64,000 nt of DNA from Podarcis gaigeae. Lineage: Eukaryota. Both the position numbers and the translations under genes were made by a program. The number at the start of each line of letters is the position of its first letter. Position 1 is the stretch's first letter. Below are positions 7,676 to 47,990 of the stretch, piece by piece. Location of the stretch: assembly GCA_964106915.2 (NCBI GenBank), contig OZ066916.1. One strand, 5' to 3'. The notes below the pieces were generated by a model, which worked only from the letters and a program-made list of their open reading frames with translations, was not told the DNA's origin and did not search any database.

Positions 7676-7897
7676 AAGTAATAAGTGGTTGCTTATTACT
7701 CTGGTGGAAAGCTAAACTAAAGTGAAGATTACGGCAATAACTCTGCTGTAATTCTTAGACTTCATTAAGACATTTCAATTTTCTTTTCCACCTGGAATTC
7801 TAAAGAGAAATTAATCTTGATGAATTTTAAAACTGGAAAATCGCAGCAAGCTGTATTAAAAAAGCCGAATGACTAACCAAGTTCTTTTGCTTCCTAG

Positions 7898-8121
7898 ATC
7901 GCATGTATGGAACATGTGAAATAGACTGGGCAAAAGCTAACTTCTCAACCATCTACAAGTCTTATATAGTGTCCATTTTCATTTGCTGTTTCTTCCTGCC
8001 TGTGTCTGTCATGGTTTTTGCTTACGTCTCCATCATCAATACTGTCAAGTCGAGCCATGCATTAAGCGGAGCAGGTGACCCAACTGATAGACAGAGGAGA
8101 ATGGAACGAAGTGTCACAAGG
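7898..8121 (+). CDS. OPN6: Opsin exon (EL2/TM5/IL3): DRMYGTCEIDW...RMERSVTR
   Basis: Acceptor ttcctag, donor gtcagt; overlaps ORF 7903..8169; conserved EL2 Cys and TM5 FFLP motif. Confidence 0.92.
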
Positions 8122-8667
8122 GTCAGTCTGGGCTTTTCTTTAGTCTGCATTGGGTGGAGAAACTTTTAAAAGCCATGGGCTGCATTTCCTTCAGAGAAGT
8201 GGTCAGAGCAGCGTACAAGGCGTGGGTGGAATTGAGGCCAGTGGTGGATGGGAGCTAAAGTCAAAAGCGGGGCGGACACTCCTTTTCTCTCTCTGCCACC
8301 CCCTTCCCTCTCAAACACACATGCACACAGTGTGGCTGAATACAAACCATGCATTTAAAGCACGCGACTTCCCCCAAAAGAATCCTGAAACCGTAATTTG
8401 TTGAAGGTGCTGGGAAATGCAGCGCTTGTGAGAGGCAAACTAAATTTTCTAATTTAAAATGCATGTAAAGCTTTAGACAACCTTAAAATGTGAGGTAGCT
8501 AGGAGGCAGATAATTCTAGAGGATTGAAACCTATTTATTAGGTCTGTGGGCCAATGAGACACTTGGAAATACTATCCAGGTCTCCCAGTTTTCCAGGACC
8601 ACCTTCTTTACAGGGATCTCTTGGGCAAGAAAGTGGAAACAGGCAAGTCTTGTTTTCTCTCCTCTAG

Positions 8668-9111
8668 GTCTCCATAGTCATTTGCACAGCCTTTATCACA
8701 GCCTGGTCCCCATATGCGGTCATCTCCATGTGGTCCGCCTATGGTTACTCTGTGCCCAATTTAACCAGCATCCTCGCCAGCCTTTTTGCGAAATCTGCCA
8801 GCTTCTACAACCCCATCATCTACTTTGGAATGAGCTCCAAATTCCGGAAGGACATCCTCGTCTTGCTGCACTGTGCCAAAGAGATCAAGGACCCCGTGAA
8901 GCTCAAGCGGTTCAAGAACCTCAAGCAGAAACAGGAGAACTCGCCTTCTCAGAGAGAGGAGAAATACGCGCCAGAAGTTCATCCTGCACTGAGTCCTGAT
9001 TCTGGTGTGGGGAGTCGTTCTAACACCCCGCCCCCTGTCAACAGGGAGGTGTATCTTGGTGCTTTTGATACCCCGTCCAACAACCCTGATATCGAATGTG
9101 ACAGGCTGTGA
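8668..9111 (+). CDS. OPN6: Opsin last coding exon (TM6, TM7, helix 8, C-tail to ...ECDRL*)
   Basis: Acceptor ctcctctag; AWSPYA, Schiff-base Lys in FAKSAS, NPIIY; TGA at 9109-9111. Confidence 0.93.
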   Translation, partial: VSIVICTAFITAWSPYAVISMWSAYGYSVPNLTSILASLFAKSASFYNPIIYFGMSSKFRKDILVLLHCAKEIKDPVKLKRFKNLKQKQENSPSQREEKYAPEVHPALSPDSGVGSRSNTPPPVNREVYLGAFDTPSNNPDIECDRL

Positions 9112-26948: not shown

Positions 26949-29900
26949 TGTGAGTAATTAGGGGAAAGGAAATACAGGAAGTTTTATTACTGAAATTGCC
27001 CAAAATACAACATCATAACACAGGGCTGTTTTCTGAATGCGGATTGCTACCAGACTCTGAAGAGACTTGTTTCTCATTTCATTTTAATGTGATCTGACAA
27101 ATTGCTTGGCAGAGGTGAAGGTTCTGGGAGAAAATGGGAAATGCATTTAGACGTCTTATTTTTTTTATTTTAAAAAAGCATGCATAAAAGGAAACAAATG
27201 GAGGAAACATCACTTCCAAGATGATTTAACGTGACCCTGATGATGGGCTGAAATGAGGGTTGGGAGGACATGGTGCCAAAAATGGGGCAGGGGAAGAGTT
27301 GTGTAGGGATTTTGCCATTTGCAAGTGCTGCTGAGATCTGGTCATGGCTGATGTGGCAGAGTAAAACACCAACCCTCTATGAGGAGTTTGGCCAGCTTGA
27401 AGCAGCCTGAGGGAGGACCACATTACTGCTTATCGAAACTCTGCCCAAACCAAACATTTCAGTCAGTAGCTACTATCGTTGAGCTTATTCAGAGTTGTTG
27501 GAGAAGTGGGGGATTATCTCCTTACTTTCCTCTTTCACCTGGACAATTATTGCCACATTTTAATGTTGCTGATGGTTTTGGAAATTTGCCACCAGTTGCA
27601 TTCATCAATGGCTTGAAGTGGATCAATTTCTTTTGTACTGAGTAAATGTAAAACAATTTTGCTGGATTAAAGTAACTTTCCTTCTGAAGGTCCCTTCATG
27701 CTATAAGGTGGGGAATGGGAACCTCACCCTCTCATTGGCTGCTCTTCCTCCATTATATTGGTGGCAGCCTCACCAAAGAAGATGGGAAGATTGTTCTGGT
27801 TCTTCCGATGGGAGTTGTGGTCCATCATGGAGGGGTCCAGATTGGAGAAGGCTGGTTTAGATTTTTTTACCAGGCAAAAGTACAAAATTTTGCTACAAAC
27901 TCTTGGAAATGTCTGCAAAGAGATGTGGGCCAGGCAAAAACAGCTTCGAATTTCAGTTTTGCCAGGTTCTGGACATACCTGCCAGTGCTTTAAAAGCCAA
28001 GTTGGGCTATAAAAGTACTTTTTAAAAATACTCCATGAAGTTTATTAATTAAACTTCTTTAATTTAATTACTTAATTAACCTCTCTTTTTTGGTTCAGTA
28101 CACTGCTCAGGTTTATTTGCTTTTTTTAAAAAAATCTGGTTTTTAGGACTTTATTGACTGTTGCTAACTGTATTTTATTGTTCTTATGTAATCTGCCTTG
28201 AGATTTTTAACCAAATTACACAGTATACACTTTTAATAACTAAAATACATGTAATACACTTTTAATAACTAAATACATGTAATAATAACTTTGGTCCTGG
28301 AGGGGATAGACTAGTACCTTGAATTGTCTCATGCTAATGGCTGCTGGGGAGACTGGGTTGGGGGTGCCAGTGGTAGATGCATATGGAATCTGCCTTGGGG
28401 ATGTAGTCAACATAGCACTAAGAGACTGAGAGTATCCTCCATCCAGAGAACCCTGGGACGAATGCAAACAGTTAGCATGGGGTAATCTAACACATTGCAC
28501 TTGTGCCAGCACTTGCATCTCCTTGCCAAGCAATCAGGAGAAAGATACCTGATTAGAAAGATAGGTGTGATAGAATGTTCCTCACCATATGGAAGGGAAC
28601 TTCAGGCAAACAGATTTCCATGTTCAACATTTATTCCATGCACAATGGCATAACTTAACACCTGCCAATGAATGTCCATATTCAACCCTAATCTCAGATG
28701 TGTAAGGGCTTGTGGTTGCTCAAAGCTACACTTTTGTCCATCATTTCTTCACATAAAGACAAGCTATAAGGATAAGCACAGCAGCAATGAGCTCCATCTT
28801 AAATTAAGCCTATATCATTTTCAGATGATGGAAGTGTTACCCAGTTCAAATCATGTGTTCCTAACGTTTTCAGACTGCTTTTATGCTCCATATTGCATTC
28901 AACTGTGCATCATATGTCTTCTATATAAACATATCAATGCAACGTTGACACCAGGACACATGGTATGCCTACTCTTGAAAATCAGTCCAATTATGCTTGC
29001 AAACAAAACATTGGCAGGTATGGAATTTTTCAAAATAATATGCCATGTATGGTTTGCAGTTGCATTCAGAACCTATTACTTACTAATCCAATTTATCAGA
29101 TTGTTTCTATACCTTACTTCTGATACCAATAAATATTGAGAGCTATAGTTGTGTAGTAGTGTTGCACAAGGACTGGGAGAGTAGGGCTCAAACCACACAC
29201 ACACACACACAGCCATGAAACTTGCTGGGTGACTCTCGGCCAGTTAGTGTCTCTTAGATTAATTAACCTTCCTCACAGTGTGGCAGATTCACAAGACAAG
29301 CTATTAAAACGAAGACCTTAGAACTGCCCTTTTTGCTCCCTAGGCTGCAATCGCCATATAACCTCAAGGTTATTTTTTGTATGTTAAATGTTATTTTCAA
29401 ACATGCAAAAAGTAAGCTATGCTGCACTTTTTGGAAACCTCAAAGGACGTGTTCACACCTTGGTATAAATACAACCCAAGATTTTCACTCATTGTTAACA
29501 CTTCCACCAAGGAGTCTTTTTTGCACAATGCTGAATATATTGGGCACAATCCAACATATGCTGTTCCCACACAAATTCCACTGGAAAAAATGTGGTACTT
29601 GTGGGAGCAATAGCTGGGAGATTAGGCTCACTTATTGTTGCTGGCAACGCCAAGCGCAAGCATTCCACTCGTCTGATTTGGCATCCAGTTAGTCTAATGA
29701 GCTATTAATATCATACATCTAGATGCTTTATATTTTTGGTCAAAAATATATAGGCAAAGAAAATTTCCCATTCATCATGTGATATTTTTGCAGGAATCAA
29801 TGTATATCTAGCACCTGCGACCCCTTTCTTGATGCTTCCTATAGCTGGAATGTGCTGTTTGTTTTCTGGGATACAGTTCTCAATGCGAGAGGCATAACCT

Positions 29901-30158
29901 TTTCACAGGTGGATGGTTGTGAAAACTGCTGCTGAGCTGAGTTTTTCAGTTTGGCCAGTTACCAGCTGAGCTTACCACATTCCAGCTAGTGTGTAGCAGG
30001 CATCTGTGTAGGTGGCCAGTTATTATCCCACCAACATGGAGAGAGCTGTGTATCGTTACCAGGGCAGTGGACAGGAGATGCTTTATTTGATGAGGATTTA
30101 GTAAACACTGAGTTCTCACACTCCCATAGGACCTTCCACCAAACCTGAAGGTTGAGAA

Positions 30159-30187
<29 letters not shown>

Positions 30188-30189
<2 letters not shown>

Positions 30190-30465
30190 GCAGGTTTTGG
30201 TGTCCTCGGGTGTCTTCCCGTGTAAAAGTTGGGGTGTCTAGGCGACGTTTCGACGAGGTCTCACTCGTCATCTTCAGGCTGGTGCTTTCGGCTTCTTGTT
30301 ACTGGAACAGAGCTCTGTTCCAGTAACAAGAAGCCGAAAGCACCAGCCTGAAGATGACGAGTGAGACCTCGTCGAAACGTCGCCTAGACACCCCAACTTT
30401 TACACGGGAAGACACCCGAGGACACCAAAACCTGCATTCCTGTACCCGTGAAAATCTACGAAAGC

Positions 30466-30466
<1 letters not shown>
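30188..30466. mobile_element. Penelope-like element remnant: inverted pseudo-LTR pair forming a perfect 250-bp palindrome, inserted in (TA)n
   Basis: Arms 30188-30312 and 30313-30437 are exact reverse complements. They contain ctgaaga...gaaacgtc, and the right arm extends to ccgtgaaaatctacgaaagc, both typical of Penelope pLTRs. (TA)n flanks both sides. Confidence 0.8.
30346..30383 (+). ncRNA. Minimal type-I hammerhead ribozyme motif (mirror copy on the - strand at 30242-30279)
   Basis: CUGAAGA (30348-30354), U, stem II gacgag/ctcgtc with a 6-nt loop, GAAA (30374-30377), CG, UC cleavage triplet ending at 30381. Stem I is only 2-3 bp. Confidence 0.6.

Positions 30467-30538
<72 letters not shown>
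30467..30538. repeat. Compound (TA)n(CA)n(GA)n microsatellite; (TA)n also at 30163-30189
   Basis: Direct reading of the sequence. Confidence 0.9.
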
Positions 30539-30539
<1 letters not shown>

Positions 30540-32648
30540 TATCTAGTAAGCCGGAGCACTATTGCAAACAAAAGTTTCCTTTCCTGGCTCAGTTAGTCAC
30601 CTTGGGTAAATAACTCATGTTATACAATTGATACCATGAGCTCTTCCATTTCCTAGAGCACTTGTGTGCTCATTTATGATATACAAAAATTAAGAATATA
30701 ATTCTTGCTTAACATGGACACCCACACCCAAACATGCCAGCTAGAAGAAATGCCAAGCAGAGGGGAAGGTGATGTTATTTCTGGAGGCTAGAAAGCTGTC
30801 ATAAAATCTGATTGGTGGTGTGCCGGGGGGTAGGGGGAGAGAGAGAGAAGGGCCAAATATATAAAAGTATGCCTGACTCTTTAAACAGAAACATCAGAAA
30901 CTGATACCCTAATCTATCTGTCAATGCCCCAGTTTATAGACTATTCAGTATTCACTTAGCTTTTTACAAAATAGTTGACATCTCCCAAGGGTCAATCCAT
31001 AACATTTTGCTGCCTGAGATAAAGTACAGAAAACCACCAGTCTGACACAGTGGCAAAGCACCCATTGAGGGCAGCAGCAGGCTAGCTTGGGGTGGTAGCA
31101 AGGAAGCCACATGGCACCCACAGCTCTGTCATCTAACTGATCACCATCACTCTCTTGCCTGCCCCCCAGCACCTGCTGCCTGAGGCATCCACCTCAATTG
31201 GCAGGGGCAGCCCTGCTTCTATCCTGTGGATTCTTTTTTTCAGCACCTCCCAATTGACTCAGGCTTCCTGCATCACACCCTGTGACGTCATGGATCTATA
31301 GTCAGCAAACTGTTATTTAACTGAGGTGGCTCAGCCCTTTGCACTGTGATGTAAAGGAATATGACAGGTGACCAAAATCTCTGGGAATCAGCAACAAATA
31401 AACAAACAAATAAATTTTTATTTATACCCCGCCCTTCCCAGTTCAGAAAACCAGACTCAGGGAGGCTAACAACAAATTTAAAACACTTAATTGATGCAAC
31501 AAAAAACAGCATAAAATACAGTATAAAACAAGAATAACAATAAATTCAGAATTCAAAAAACAATTTAGGGGGGAAATCCATCCAATAAACATTAGATGAT
31601 CACCAGGGCTAGCTGGCTAAATTAGTCCTATTTGGGCCAGCGAGGAGACCAGGGGAGAATTAGCTGTGGGATCCCAGAGCGGGGGGTTTGCACCCCTACA
31701 TCAGTTAAAGAGCCCATTCCAAATCAATGTCATACTACAAGCTATGATTTTTTAAAAGTTCTGAAAAAATGGAAGTACAGCTAAATGTTCAAAAGCCTGC
31801 TTTTTGTTTTAGGCAGATGCTTAAAGGCCATAAAAAACATTACAGTAAAAATTAACTAACTAAAGGTGTGAATGTAGAGGGCAGGGAGATCGAGAACTTG
31901 ATTATGGCATAAAGCCACATTTATTCATATATTTTTAATCATAGCCTGTTTCAAATCATTAACCGGACTAGTTATACATCCTGGCTTTATATACATCCAT
32001 ATAAATGATTAATGTAGTTGCTTGTAGTTTTTAGAAAGATCCAGTCCTGGCTCCATGGCAATTCCCATTTCTACCTTGCCATCCTAATTATTAGTTTGCA
32101 CCCATGTTTGCAGTGATAAATTATCTAGGAGTTTTAAGGGACCAGAGAACGAACCTGTTTGACTTGATTCCTGCCAATGCTGTTCATTGTTCAAGTATCC
32201 CTATAGTACAACTCTGTACATGGTTTCCCACAAAGAACCCTGGGATCTGTAGTCGGGTAGAGTGCTGAGAATTGTTAGGAGACCTTTATTCCCTTCACAG
32301 AGCTGCAATTCCTCGAGTGGTTTATTAAGCCCAGTGCTTTTTTTCTAAAAAAATGTTTAGGGGAACTGAGGCAGAGAGAGAATAATTGGCCTTGGGTCAC
32401 ACAATGCATCCACTCACTCTGCTTCCCCCAAGTTTTCTAGGAATGGGAGACTATGGGAACAGTGCTTAGAATACATGACTAGAGAGGTACACAACTACAG
32501 GTCCCAGAGTTTCATGTAGCCACACCTGACTGAACGACAATGCCATTCTATGAATCAGCAGCGAGGATGTTTCCAAAATGGCTGCCAGACATTTCCAGAA
32601 CAAAAGAGAAGGAAAACATATGGAAGTGGTACAGGAGATGAGGAGGAG

Positions 32649-32733
32649 CAGGGCATTTTTCCCCCGGCTGGAACTGAACCAGGGAGGTCCTCAGGGTGAT
32701 ATCCAGCACTCTTTTTCTAGAAAAATAGCACTG
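32649..32733. mobile_element. Small hAT-type MITE
   Basis: Ends cagggcattttt / aaaaatagcactg; 8-bp TSD aggaggag / aggaagag. Confidence 0.55.
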
Positions 32734-34009: not shown

Positions 34010-35180
34010 GCAAGCCTGCTCCAGCCCTTCAGTTATTTGAAGACAGCCATCATCTACCCTTAATCTTCTCTTTCCCCAGGCTAAACATATCCAACTCCTT
34101 CAATGATTCCTCATAGGATGTGACTTCCAGATCCTTTGGGCTGGGTGTTCATCAGTATGTGGATGATACCCAGCTCTACCTCTTTCAAATCAGAACCAGT
34201 GAAGGCGGTGAAGGTCCTGTGTGAGTGCCTGGAGGTGGTTGGAGGATGGATGGCGGCTAACAGATTGAGGTTGAATCCTGACAAGACAGAAGTACTGTTT
34301 TGGGAGGACAGGAGGCGGGTGGGTGTGGAGGACTCCCTGGTCCTGAATGGGGTAACTGTGCCCCTGAAGGACTAGGTGCGCAGGCTGGGAGTCATTTTGG
34401 ACTCACAGCTGTCCATAGAGGCGCAGGTCAATTCTGTGTCCAGGGCAGCTGTTTATCAGCTCCATCTGGTACGCAGGCTGAGACCATACATGCCCGCAGA
34501 CTGTCTCACCAGAGTGGTGCATGCTCTGGTATCTCCTGCTTGGACTACAGCAATGCACTCTATGTGGGGCTATCTTTGAAGGTGACCCGGAAACTACAAC
34601 TAATCCAGAATGCGGCAGCTAAACTGGTGACTGGGAGCGGCCGCCGAGACCATATAACACCGGTCTTGAAAGACCTACACTGGCTCCCAGTACGTTTCTG
34701 AGCACAATTCAAAGTGTTGGTGCTGACCTTTAAAGCCCTAAACAGCCTCGGTCCGGTATACCTGAAGGAGCATCTCCAACTCTATCATTCTTCCCGGACA
34801 CTGAGGTCCAGCGCCAAGGGCCTTCTGGCAGTTCCCTTGCTACGAGAAGCCAAGTTACAGGGAACCAGGCAGAGAGCCTTCTCGGTAGTGGCACCCGCCC
34901 TGTGGAACGCCCTCCCACCAGATGTCAAAGAGAAAAATAACTACCAAACTTTTAGAAGACATCTGAAAGCAGCCGTGTTTAGGGAATCTTTAAATATTTA
35001 ATAGGTTATTGTATTTTAGTGTTTTGCTGGAAGCCGCCAGAGTGGCTGGGGAAACCCAGCCAGATGGGCGGGGTCTAAATAAATATTATTATTATTATTA
35101 TTATACCATCCCAATCACCTCTCCCTCTTCAGCTGGTCAATGTCCTTAAAATGTAGAATCCAGAACTGTGGCCTGAACAG
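34010..35180 (-). mobile_element. Old CR1 fragment split by the L2 insertion (about 34010-34133 and 35104-35180)
   Basis: ggctaaacatatccaactccttcaatgattcctcatagga...ttccagatcctt resumes after the L2 tail with gtcaatgtccttaaaatgtagaatccagaactg, as in antisense CR1 ORF2 3' region. Confidence 0.55.
34134..35103 (+). mobile_element. L2-clade LINE, 5'-truncated, frameshifted RT C-terminus plus (TTA)n tail
   Basis: HQYVDDTQLY (YADD-like), NRLRLNPDKTEVL, LGVILDSQLS, LDYSNALYVGL, QNAAAKLVTG, HITPVLKDLHWLPV are spread over several frames; tail ends in (tta)n. Confidence 0.92.
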
Positions 35181-38100
35181 CTCTTTAACTGGTTTAATCA
35201 TTCTTCCTTCTCCCATGAAACTCTGGGACCTGTAGTTGTGTACCTCTCTAGTCATGTATTCTAAGCACTGTTCTCATGGTCTCCCATTCCTAGAATACTT
35301 GGGGGAAGCAGAATGAGTGGATACATTGTGTGACTCAAAGCCAATTACTCTCCCTCTTCCTCAGTCCCCATTTGTAAAATGGGAATCATACCACACAGGA
35401 TAGTTGCAAGAGCAACCTTAAATTATTTTATATGCAAATGAAAAGGAGTAGTGAGGTAGTTTGTAGGATCAAAGGAAAACTGTGCAAAAAAAATTATCAA
35501 ATAATAAAACCTCATGGATTTTGTATTCTGAACGCATGGCAGACTAGTCATTTAACTGCTTCGAATTAATGTACACTTCCCCTCCTGACTACCTAGGCGA
35601 GAATTATTGGAAGCATGCAAGTTCCTATGATGTGTATAATGAATGGAGGTGTGTGAGTGATGCTTGAATAAAAGTATAAACATTCCACAGGTGTCGGCCA
35701 GTTGGGATGTAAACTGAATAATCTGCAGGGGCTGGAGGAGGAGTTAATCATCCTAAGGTGATTTCACATTTCCGCCATTTAGAACTTTGCTATGTGGAGC
35801 CATAAGTTCAGTGTCAGGTGTTCCTATGAAATCCTATAGCAGAGCCCATGCTCAGGGCAACGCTTGAAAACAGCTGACACTCTGAATGAGTGTTTGTGAC
35901 ACTTTCATGGCAGTGCTTTAACAAGGGCTCTTTTCATGTGCAGCCCAGGCTGGAGCCGATTCAGCTTCAGTCAGTGCACCATGATTAAGGATGGAATACT
36001 AGTGTCATTTAGCAGTCCTCAACAGTGTGATAAGGCAAAGGACAGACTAACCACACAAGCAATAGTCATGCAAAGGTTTCATCTAAGGGTAGCCAACTTC
36101 ATACCTTCCAGGTATTTTTGGCTACAGCTCCATCATCCCTGGCTATTGGTCATGCTTGGTGCAACTTATGGGAATTGTAGTCCACAACATCTGGAGGGAC
36201 CACACTGACCACGCCTGAAACAGAGGATGCCTTCAAATACAGTAGAAGACTGTCTTCTGACAGCCCTTAAAATAGAGGGCAGTACTGGCTAAAGCAGGAA
36301 GCCCTGCAACCCTACAACTTGAATTGAGGGAACACCTCCAAGTAGTAGCCAGCAGCATGCAATCCTTGCTTGCAAAATGCAAGCTTGCTATACTAATGTT
36401 TAATATTTACTAGTGATACGTGTGTGTTCTACTTTGTTCCCGTCTTTTCTTCTTTTATAGGCTGAGCTCTGCTTATATTCACAGATACAAAACTACGTCT
36501 GGCAACTGCTTTTCTCTACCTTGGAAGCAGATGTGTAGGACTAACTTCTAAGAGGAAGGCGATCGAGTTGTTTATAGCCATGCAGGTCCCCCAAAATGGG
36601 ATCTATACAGCAGGCAAATGTATACCTTTTTAATGGACCAACTAATTATTCAGCAGCTGCACACTTTCAAACCTTGCAACTGAAAGTTCAGCTGAAAACT
36701 CACACCTTGCTTGAATGGTGTATTTTCTTTTGCCATTCCAGTTTTATAGGCTATGAAATTTGACACACTAAGCCACCTTCTCTGGCCAAGCTGTAACTGA
36801 ATCAACAATCCTGATAATTTCTTGGCTCTCTGAGCCTACAAAAATGCATGCCAAATCAACCATTGAGTCTCTAAGGTGTCATATGAGATTATGCCCAATG
36901 GTCTGGCCATGTAAGCCACAGCACTGAGAAATGGGATCCAAAAGAGTGACTTATTTCCTTGCACCAGCAAAGGGGTCCATTGTCACAACAGCACTGGTAA
37001 ATGCCCCCATGTCATAGATTCAGTGGCTGCCCTAATCATTTAACCATTTGTCTTTCCTAGAAAGATGCTCGGACTGGCAGGCTGTATAGTTTGCAACCCA
37101 TAATTGCCTAATTTTCCTTTTTGGAATCAGAGGGACTTTTGTCTTGTTCAAGTGTTAAACAAATCTCCTCCGTCTTGGTGGGCTTTTCCTTTATTGTACT
37201 GTTTCAGCACCATTTAGTATAGTTCCAACTAAAGGAAAATGCTCATCTTAAATGTTTGCACATTTTGTTCTGCCTAAGCCATATAAGACCCACACAGGTA
37301 TAAAGGCTCCAATATCACATCTTGTGACCCTCTAAACCGACTGCAGCCAATCATTCATGCTTGGGAACCTCTTGGAACTGCAAAAACAGAAATTATCAAG
37401 CGCCTGGCAGACTACAGTGTGGAAGTTGTGGCTGTATTACTAGCTGTGCAGGTCTGCTGTAATCAAAACATATGTCAATCTACCTCTCAATCACCTATTC
37501 CCATACTAGGCATTCTCTGAATCCCATATAAAACTATATTTAACTTCCAGCCCTGCATGCAAAGCTGAGAGTGTTTCCAATAAGCCACTTCCTCCAACTA
37601 TTTTTAAAATGACCATAGTCCTACTGTTTATTATGCTATTACTGAAGCAGCTTTATCACCAGTCTAAAGAGAGAGAGAGAGAGAGAGAAGGAAAACATCT
37701 GCATCTGTAAAAAAGATTGGGCAAACTTACTCCTGAAGATTAGTGACAGTAAACCACTTACATTGCCCTAGATAATCACATCATGCCCATAAAGAATTTC
37801 TGTTTGCACATGTAATCCACAGGTGGAAATCAAATACTGAAAACCAGCACCTCCATTTAAAAACATAAGATTAGCCATGGTCAAACTGCTTGTGAGATTA
37901 AACAATCCACTGGTAGAAGCTCTTTAATCTTCCAGCTCCTTCAAAGGGCATTCTAAAAGTCAGACTATCAATAACATAATTTAAAAGGAAGACATTCTGT
38001 GGCTTAGGTGTGGTTTCAAAACATCTATTTTCTTTTAAATGTTAAAACTTTCCCAATATTATTCTTCAAAAGAAGGAAAAGACTGTTGCTTTAAAAATAA

Positions 38101-38869
38101 AATCTCTTTTCAAAGAGATATCTGATTGTGTGATCAGTGTGTTCAAAGTGACCACCTTTCCAGGTTTTAGGGCAGTTTCAGCCAAGTGGGCTTGTGGGTC
38201 ATCAATGCTATGAATCAGAACTCCTGACCTGTCACACATCTTCAGAGTGCCCCAAATCCGCTACAATAAGTCAAAATCTCCACAAAAGCATCTCTTATAC
38301 GAAGTATGGTTGCTGTTTAGGTGCCAATACTGATACTCTGGTGTGATAGAAGCAACATGAAGCAAGTAAGGAGGTAAAAAAATGCCTTTTGTTGGGTCCC
38401 AGGATTTATCTACACAAGGTTTTGGAATGGTTGTATGATTCTCTAGATAGAATTACAGACTGGTTTTGTTTCTCCCACACCTATGTCCTTCCAAAAAGCA
38501 TTCACCACTGACTTCAACCTTAGAATGTTGCTGCTGCTGCTGCTACTAATATTATTTAGTCTTTAAATCCAACAAAAAGAAAACATGTTTTTTAAAAAAG
38601 CATGTATAGTATCCATTCAATGAAAAATAATTTCAAAAACCACATCCTTCTGATAAATGTGTCAGTTTTAAAAATAAATAAGCAGACATTGGAAGGAACT
38701 AGGGTACTCTGAAAGGACTTCAAGAAAGATAACCTTAATCTACTCAAACAATAATAAACCAACCACAGATGAATGGTAAGAAAATGAGATTTTTAAACTA
38801 AGTGAGGAAGAATTTGATATTTTATTTTTACTTTACAGTGAACCTGATTAAAATTCCAAGACTCTCATC

Positions 38870-38900
38870 ATGAAGTCAAGAACAATTGCAACAATATTTG
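38870..38900 (+). CDS. VIT: VIT coding exon 1 (MKSRTIATIF; exon starts at 38839)
   Basis: Acceptor ctttacag at 38838, ATG 38870, donor gtaagt; start of the signal peptide. Confidence 0.8.
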
Positions 38901-45216: not shown

Positions 45217-45749
45217 CTGAGCAGAATTCAAAGTGTTGATGCTGACCTTTAAAGCCTTAAACCAGGCATAGGCAAACTCAGCCCTACATATGTTTTGGGA
45301 CTACAACTCCCATGATTCCTAGCTAACAGGACCAGTGGTCAGGGATGGTGGGAATTGTAGTCCCAAAACATCTGGAGGGCTGAGTTTGCCTATGCCTGCC
45401 CTAAACAGCCTCAGCCCAGTATACCTGAAGGAGTGTCTCCACCCCCCATCGTTCTACCTGGACCGAGGGCCTTCTGGCAGCGCCGAGGGCCTTCTGGCAG
45501 TTCCCTCACTACGAGAAGTGAAGTTACAGGGAACCAGGCAGAGGGCCTTCTCGGTAGTGGCACCCGCCCTATGGAATGCCCTCCCACCAGATGTCAAAGA
45601 GATAAACAACTATATGACATTTAGAAGACTTCTGAAGGCAGCCCTGTTTAGGGAAATTTAGAATGATTGATGTTTTAATGTATTTTTAATCTTTTGTTGG
45701 AAGCCGCCCAGAGTGGGGAAAGCCAGCCAGATGGGTGGGGTAGAAATAA

Positions 45750-47241: not shown

Positions 47242-47990
47242 TAGTGGTGCCTCGCAAGACGAAATTAATTCGTTCCGCAAGTCTTTTCGTCTTGCGAGTT
47301 TTTCGTCTTGCGAAGCACGGTTTCCCATAGGAATGCATTGAAAATCAATCAATGCGTTCCTATAGAAACCGCCTTCAGACCAGGTCCGGGGACAGTCTGT
47401 CCCCCGACCTCTTCTGAAGGCCGGTGGGGGGCGAAAGTCTTTGCTTCCCCCTCCCCCGCCTGCCTTCCCGGGAGAGCGGAGACTTCTCTGCTGTCCCGGG
47501 GCGATCTTAAAATGCTGGCGGGCGGCAGCGAAGGCAGCGCTGCGTTTCTCCGCTCTCCCAGGAAGGCAGGCAGGGGGGAGCAAAGACTTTTGCCCCCCGC
47601 CAGCCTTCAGAAGAGGTCCAGGACCTCTTCTGAAGGCGGGCGGGGGGCAAAAGTCTTTGCTCCCCCCGCCTGCCTTCAAAAGCCATCCGGGATAGCGGGA
47701 AGCGCTTCCCTGCTATCCCGGACTGCTTTTAAAATGCTGGCGGTGGGGAGCAAAGCCTTTCGGCCCCCGCCGGCCTTCCTGGACCTCTTCTGAAGGCCGG
47801 AGTGGGGGGAAAGGCTTTTCTCCCCACCGCTAGCATTTAAAAGAGGTCCCCGGAGATTTCCCTATGGGCTTTCTTCTTGCGAAGCAAGCCCATAGGGAAA
47901 TTCGTTTTGCGAAGCGCCTCCAAAACGGAAAACCCTTTCGTCTAGCGGATTTTTCGTCTTGCGAGGTGTTCGTCTTGCGGGGCACCACTG
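47242..47990. mobile_element. Tc1/mariner (Tigger/pogo-like) non-autonomous element with GC-rich internal repeats
   Basis: TIRs agtggtgcctcgcaagacgaa / ttcgtcttgcggggcaccact; TA flanks at 47240-47241 and 47991-47992; subterminal ttcgtcttgcga repeats. Confidence 0.88.

Follow-up and report, generated by a model that had tools for sequence, protein, structure and literature searches.

A perfect palindrome in a (TA)n run upstream of vitrin

The stretch of Podarcis gaigeae DNA analysed here in full, a 64-kb segment that we refer to as the window, contains the vitrin gene (VIT). Its best relatives are the vitrins of lacertid lizards (99% and 98%), and its exons map from the ATG at 38870 to 60211. 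The first coding exon is preceded by an acceptor near 38838, and a non-coding exon must therefore lie upstream; a donor-like site is found near 25720. The insertion that is the subject of this study is located 8.4 kb upstream of the start codon and, as we would guess, within the first intron of VIT. A rhodopsin-family 7TM gene (Pfam 7tm_1) is represented in the window as well, by a pair of exons at 7873-9108 (plus strand), ~30 kb upstream of the VIT start; we take them to be opsin-like.

The window contains several further repeats. An inverted pair of 156-nt repeats (32361-32516 and 35214-35369; 93% complementary, 2.7 kb apart) lies between the palindrome and the VIT start. A 136-base inverted-repeat element at 45263-45398 (58-nt arms, 90%, 20 apart) splits a LINE-like fragment that is also present at 34696-35104, and a CpG-rich nest of direct and inverted repeats is found inside a VIT intron at 47406-47837. 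This nest includes a 47-nt arm pair (47573-47667) that is 98% complementary with its arms 1 nt apart, and its long frame has no Pfam match.

The insertion itself spans 30188-30467. Sequence comparison of its two arms, 30188-30312 and 30313-30437, confirmed what the preliminary description had reported: they measure 125 nt each, are 100% complementary and are separated by 0 nt. It is the one zero-spacer palindrome with an arm of >13 nt in the 64-kb window, the next-longest being the (TA)n run itself. We found no second copy of the repeat elsewhere in the 64-kb window, and the tandem-repeat table of the window lists no tandem array of it at the locus. The observed/expected ratio of CpG is 1.02 in the arm and 0.23 across the window. 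On the VIT strand (+), the first bases of the right arm (30313-30323) are pyrimidine-rich, end in CAG and resemble a splice acceptor; this stretch would sit at the tip of the hairpin.

The two ends of the insertion are asymmetric, since the right copy continues beyond the palindrome with a tail (30438-30467, plus strand) that is absent from the left arm. An extension of about 29 nt had been noticed at first; the extension stands, and its length is now given as 28 unambiguous bases, to 30465, or as 30 nt when measured between the GCAT motifs that close both ends of the insertion (starting at 30434 and 30464). The tail contains a predicted 4-bp hairpin at 30447-30460 (RNA folding). The insertion thus comprises one copy of 125 bases and another of about 155, both lying within a (TA)n run. 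That both ends abut (TA)n, as first described, is borne out by the sequence and the tandem-repeat table. On the left, the run covers 30163-30189 (13.5 TA units, the final two letters overlapping the arm end) and is likely part of the target site; on the right, a compound microsatellite (TA)n(CA)n(GA)n covers 30466-30538 and is likely the remainder of that site. Both ends being inside (TA)n, a target-site duplication is not readable. The GCAT shared before (AT)n at 30434-30437 and 30464-30467 would be explained if, at each of the two reverse transcriptase (RT) start sites, the template matched the (TA)n primer over 2 bases.

One hammerhead motif per arm, predicted to be masked in the read-through RNA

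Each arm carries one minimal hammerhead core, as had been noted, beginning at 30348 on the plus strand (30348-30381, type I) and at 30277 on the minus strand (30244-30277, located by motif scan). In the right arm, the core CUGAAGA is followed by an extra U, a stem II of 6 bp (30356-30361 with 30368-30373) and GAAA, and the cleavage triplet ends at C30381, after which the cut is predicted. The place of stem III is taken by a self-complementary ACGU. Stem I is indeed as short as first stated (2-3 bp), with 2 bp measured (30346-30347 with 30382-30383). A scan with a minimal-hammerhead consensus gave two matches in the window, one in each arm, and none in 60 simulated windows in which the dinucleotide make-up of the window was kept; a looser scan added one weak match, at 32694. 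Compared by eye, the core agrees with the consensus in Fig. S3 of the part of the PMC4209133 supplement available to us. The Infernal/Rfam models gave the assignment no backing: the 25 matches with an E of up to 10 included no hammerhead family, and none reached the gathering score. The best Rfam matches were miRNA models fitting the hairpin, together with sok models, all below the gathering score. Motif scans gave 0 hits in metagenome contigs and 0 in viral contigs.

RNA folding predicts very different fates for a single arm and for the whole insert. In a single arm, stem II has a pairing probability of 0.98-1.0 and stem I one of at most 0.014, and a self-duplex of the ACGU with a second molecule amounts to -3.1 kcal/mol. 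When the insert is folded as a whole, its arms form a 123-bp duplex (-264.6 kcal/mol), the probability of stem II drops to 0.0, and 29 kcal/mol would be needed to force it. The masking of the ribozyme in a read-through transcript, put forward in the preliminary description, is thereby supported. Its reading of two opposed motifs can be refined: the motifs lie on opposite strands, and each transcript strand carries one sense hammerhead. Because any RNA strand holds one sense motif, no dimer in cis is possible, and we rejected a cis-dimer of the two hammerheads. Since the junction is head-to-head, a polymerase arriving from either side always transcribes the antisense arm first; with one sense motif per strand, folding during transcription would therefore not rescue the ribozyme. 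According to these models, the ribozyme would be locked off within the 123-bp duplex of the read-through RNA, and this copy is predicted not to self-cleave. The hammerhead would then be a passenger at this insertion.

The hammerhead opens a reading frame with relatives in snakes

An ATG at the entry of stem II (30354) starts a frame that remains open through the tail (30354-30465, plus strand) and that translation and protein matching identify as the putative first 37 codons of the ORF of the element. Counted from this ATG, the cut site lies at +28, the short end at +84 and the tailed end at +112. A phmmer search of 1.84 billion proteins with the window frame returned three matches. The top match (P0121), a repetitive fish protein with 28-35% identity, was rejected as spurious. 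The second (P0122) is a gene model from a sea krait whose end matches the frame at 29 of 45 residues. At its end (residues 195-239), this model, annotated as a Laticauda MFS transporter, carries the element end in translated form. By sequence, a related family would thus be present in snakes, with the P0122 copy apparently exonised or mis-annotated.

The third match (P0123) shares the starting methionine with the window frame and is identical to it at 25 of 37 residues (E 6.4e-4 in 1.84 billion proteins); it then runs on for 150 residues past the matched start. P0123 in turn leads to a single longer protein, the rattlesnake protein P0127 (65% identity over 97%, E 8.5e-64), and the window frame, P0123 and P0127 have 18 invariant columns in common. 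P0127 carries DKG at 283-285 and ends soon after; its last 25 residues resemble the first RT motifs. The DKG motif has been named as diagnostic for Penelope-like elements (PLEs) (PMC8557442, in the part available to us). The similarity to PLEs expected from the preliminary description is therefore supported by the path from the frame through P0123 to P0127 with its DKG. By this homology, the frame that begins in the hammerhead corresponds to the N-terminal part of longer proteins, which ties the hammerhead to an ORF by way of related sequences.

A 47-residue search of longer proteins with the window frame yielded two candidates, neither of them scoring. In Pfam, neither P0123 nor P0127 matched an RT or GIY-YIG family; P0123 matched no family at all and P0127 two weak, unrelated ones. 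The PDB yielded two ribosomal S13 chains (E 0.04), which we took as chance. The ESM Atlas returned nothing for P0123 and, for P0127, unnamed eukaryotic clusters with DUF8422. The single-sequence fold predicted for P0127 (pLDDT 42) was too poor for use. Neither metagenome nor viral contigs contained a locus matching P0127 as a whole or the 110 residues at its end, and two short P0127 matches in bacterial MAG contigs were rejected, no PLE ORF being present around them. At the start of a bacterial MAG contig (L001:1-111), 37 codons resembling the end of P0127 stand in frame with an unrelated bacterial ORF; this is probably a chimeric contig end.

The palindrome belongs to an abundant, uniform repeat family

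Among the 24 sequencing runs listed, none of which is recorded as RNA, 23 contain the stretch or part of it, and 13 contain at least half of its words. We aligned the contigs of four runs on 29650-30497, namely X1 and X2 (one organism), X4 (a second) and X20 (a third; we guess RNA). The repeat mask hid 30153-30197 and 30458-30497 in the run contigs, covering the tailed end and the empty site. Summed depth peaks on the element at 634,200 (X1), 1,232,596 (X2) and 604,037 (X4), with flank depths of 11.6, 69.1 and 7.13, respectively. In these three DNA runs, the element therefore reaches ~10^4-10^5 times the depth of the flank, a ratio that is not a copy number; X20 covered the element but no flank. 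By depth, the element is a very abundant repeat.

The family is also highly uniform. Contigs at least 99% alike make up 233 of 271 in X1, 1207 of 2269 in X2, 298 of 346 in X4 and 16 of 62 in X20. One variant place is listed within the element (30402), reaching at least 5% only in X20, and the window copy has the majority letter of the family at every covered place. Uniform contigs and a majority-letter copy point to a young family, and in lacertids it looks young, uniform and abundant. The youth claimed at the outset, from undiverged arms and many intact CpGs, is supported by these family data. In the literature searched, we found no description of this lacertid family, which may well be catalogued in Repbase or Dfam; a literature search with three short sequence motifs returned only papers that were unrelated by title.

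The contigs further define the ends of the element. In X1, X2 and X4, respectively, 6, 24 and 9 contigs stop at 30437 and continue as (AT)n, which equals the end of the left arm; others have (AT)n followed by an element start at 30376, 30377, 30396 or 30427. In X2, X4 and X20, some contigs match one base beyond the centre (30312/30313) and continue with other, mutually similar letters. The element is therefore longer and was truncated at this locus, and the central GC is native to it. From the sequence, the depth of the family and this upstream continuation, the right arm (30313-30437, plus strand) is recognised as a 5'-truncated element end corresponding to the 3' part of the pLTR. The left arm (30188-30312, minus strand), as its 100% mirror, is an inverted and likewise 5'-truncated element end without the tail. 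At 30311-30314, both 5' truncation points meet head-to-head with zero spacer, as seen from the sequence and the contigs of other copies.

Inversions of this kind recur in the family. Among the 10 joints listed, eight are inverting and connect the left arm to the right arm at other truncation points. Their smallest offsets are 1, 15, 6, 17, 2, 0, 0 and 79, with the proviso that for 8 of the 10 listed joints, letters between the joined sides may exist. The two truncation points are <=17 nt apart in 7 of the 8 inverting joints (chance about 0.001 (0.0014) for independent ends) and <=2 nt apart in 4 of the 8 (chance about 0.0003, likewise for independent ends), both thresholds having been picked after the fact and the ascertainment of the joints being uncertain. 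With thresholds chosen afterwards, the two truncation points are tightly coupled across the family. Several contigs, in addition, join a truncated copy to another over a short (TA)n or return within the element; these are nested or partial-tandem insertions of the same family.

At the locus itself, none of the pieces listed is a contig spanning its own centre (30312/30313). A 3256-base contig matches the left flank without a difference up to 30152. X1 is identical to the window in the flank and may have been the source of the window, in which case it would not be independent. At 30078-30085, X2 has an 11-base insertion and a substitution that it has in common with X4, and X1 has the sequence of the window; these two flank haplotypes would be useful for typing the empty site.

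Origin of the palindrome

We are confident that a Penelope-like retrotransposon with an endonuclease left this palindrome as a stump when it inserted, in a single recent event, and that the stump is made up of two head-to-head 5'-truncated copies. The terminal hammerhead, the 5' truncation, the recurring inverted copy, the one-sided tail and the ORF start are all features of EN+ PLEs, whose single ORF is expected to encode a telomerase-like RT and a GIY-YIG endonuclease; a CX2-5CxxC linker between these two domains and RT phylogeny distinguish the Neptune clade from Penelope/Poseidon. Family data, protein homology and published work alike uphold the initial interpretation, in which a pLTR stump of Penelope-like type, young and paired with an inverted partner, sits in (TA)n. 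The extra right-hand bases correspond to the known PLE tail, and both the architecture of such inversions and their siRNA consequence have already been published. Such elements ordinarily yield truncated, inverted insertions, and this copy, having no complete ORF, cannot move by itself.

How might such a structure arise? The protein of the element would nick (TA)n DNA, and reverse transcription would be primed at two start sites inside the element RNA; the tailed end (+112 from the ATG) would stem from one of them and the short end (+84) from the other. Synthesis would then have stopped early, leaving the 5' truncation. The mirror arm was presumably made in the same event and tied to the same truncation point, because both copies are truncated at one point here and other copies show coupled truncation points; it could have formed when a single cDNA folded back or when the ends of two cDNAs annealed. 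Self-priming has been proposed for the inverted PLE junction (PMC3846280, in the part available to us). A simple fold-back of one strand needs a loop. As a proposal of this analysis, two cDNAs from one broken RNA that anneal at a self-complementary end would explain the zero spacer better than self-priming. The dinucleotide GC, which is self-complementary, is found at this centre and at one other zero-offset joint. We tentatively suggest, as a scenario that we would not yet bet on, that one broken RNA was copied twice, from both RT start sites on both nicked (TA)n strands, and that both cDNAs ended at one base and primed on each other through this dinucleotide.

A palindrome this perfect could also be artificial, produced by fold-back at a copy of the repeat during library preparation or assembly. 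The 100% identity of the arms and the missing contig over 30312/30313 among the pieces listed would fit such an artefact, and PLE insertions often trouble assemblies (PMC8557442, in the part available to us). However, the mirror halts at the short end of the family, exactly where the 6, 24 and 9 contigs also halt, and neither the tail nor the flank is copied. Moreover, two other runs show similar inversions elsewhere in the element, in 8 of the 10 joints listed, the 3256-base contig agrees with the left flank, and a one-sided tail is a published PLE feature (PMC8557442 and PMC3846280). We therefore regard an artefact as very unlikely. In three DNA runs, the very high depth is confined to precisely this stretch. 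This raises another question, namely whether a non-autonomous, MITE-like or retrozyme-like palindrome moves as a whole 280-base hairpin, all the more as reptiles are among the hosts of pLTR-related retrozymes (bioRxiv 10.64898/2026.07.22.740005). Against this, other copies pass the centre and invert at eight different points, which shows that the centre is not fixed; the ends are asymmetric, no tandem array is present at the locus, and the sequence is the start of an ORF. We rejected a MITE or other fixed palindromic element on account of the asymmetric ends and the differing inversion points, and a non-LTR retrozyme on account of the absent tandem array, the ORF start and the variable 5' ends. 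That the hairpin is itself the mobile unit thus strikes us as extremely improbable.

The VIT start codon lies 8.4 kb downstream of the insertion, in an exon preceded by an acceptor, and this position invites the idea that the PLE stump has been kept for an effect on vitrin, as a source of double-stranded RNA, an editing site, a ribozyme switch or a cruciform. A 123-bp duplex is predicted for RNA read through the site, and siRNAs match inverted Penelope regions in Drosophila (PMC3681739, in the part available to us), which would suit such a role. Yet the letters agree with the family majority wherever covered, giving no sign of age or constraint, and the stump is one among very many copies. We give selection for an effect on vitrin hardly any credence.

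With the recent PLE insertion as the preferred reading, the single locus matters little, being one stump among very many copies with a published anatomy. The lacertid family is of some use, as its geometry is the same as that of the one PLE studied in vitro. Its inverted junctions form a natural data set on the origin of tandem and inverted PLE structures and on microsatellite targeting, an open question according to PMC8557442 (in the part available to us). If the family is truly abundant and young, the two-cDNA model would be testable by counting junctions in one lizard genome. Each such stump is a potential long double-stranded RNA, if transcribed. The coupling of the truncation points across the family is the one lead worth following.

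Comparison with known elements

The comparisons below refer to the parts of the cited sources that were available to us. Metazoan PLE hammerheads occur in opposite-strand pairs 100-700 bp apart, with motifs in snakes and a turtle, and the minimal hammerheads of PLEs show no cleavage as monomers and low cleavage as dimers (PMC4209133). The motif described here shares with them the core, the extra base before stem II, the G-C first pair, the long stem II and the self-complementary stem III. Its stem I of 2 bp differs from the 4-5 bp of Schistosoma and resembles the 2-bp Drosophila Penelope rows, and the snake row in Fig. S3 of that paper is another sequence family. The non-LTR retrozymes (bioRxiv 10.64898/2026.07.22.740005) are likewise short, hammerhead-bearing, pLTR-related and reptilian; they are tandem or monomeric units, whereas the present locus is an inverted truncated pair from a family that runs on upstream and into an ORF.

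A further parallel is offered by PAc (Poseidon), a PLE of Anolis carolinensis (PMC11167929), whose ORF starts at stem II and in which RT starts 111-118 nt into the ORF. The PAc protein cuts and extends both strands of AT-rich DNA, two RT start sites delimit the tail, and no homology is reported at the RT start site. The PAc hammerhead requires the protein for cleavage, and insertion in vitro proceeds without it. Both elements share the ATG at stem II, an AT-rich target and a small 3' stem-loop. The cut site lies 28 nt from the ATG here and 26 nt in PAc; the tailed end at +112 compares with the RT start of 111-118, and the two ends are about a tail apart in both. PAc seems to be another family: when its RNA sequence, as printed in Fig. 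S1, is compared with the tail by eye, the likeness is limited to short motifs.

In general, PLE insertions contain an inverted 5'-truncated copy and a one-sided tail of 30-40 bp and favour (TA)n, by a mechanism that is still open (PMC8557442). A tail of 31 bp, first ORF codons within the pLTR and palindromes at the inverted junction have likewise been described (PMC3846280); in rotifer elements, the junction palindromes measure 18 and 38 bp, with an overlap of 15 bp (PMC8557442 and PMC3846280). The locus studied here has the same 5' truncation, the same inverted copy joined at the 5' ends, a one-sided tail of 30 nt, ORF codons in the pLTR, a position in (TA)n without a readable target duplication and a palindrome at the junction. 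It differs from the EN+ PLE insertion unit of these papers in that both copies are so short that the insertion consists of the palindrome and its tail, with zero spacer.
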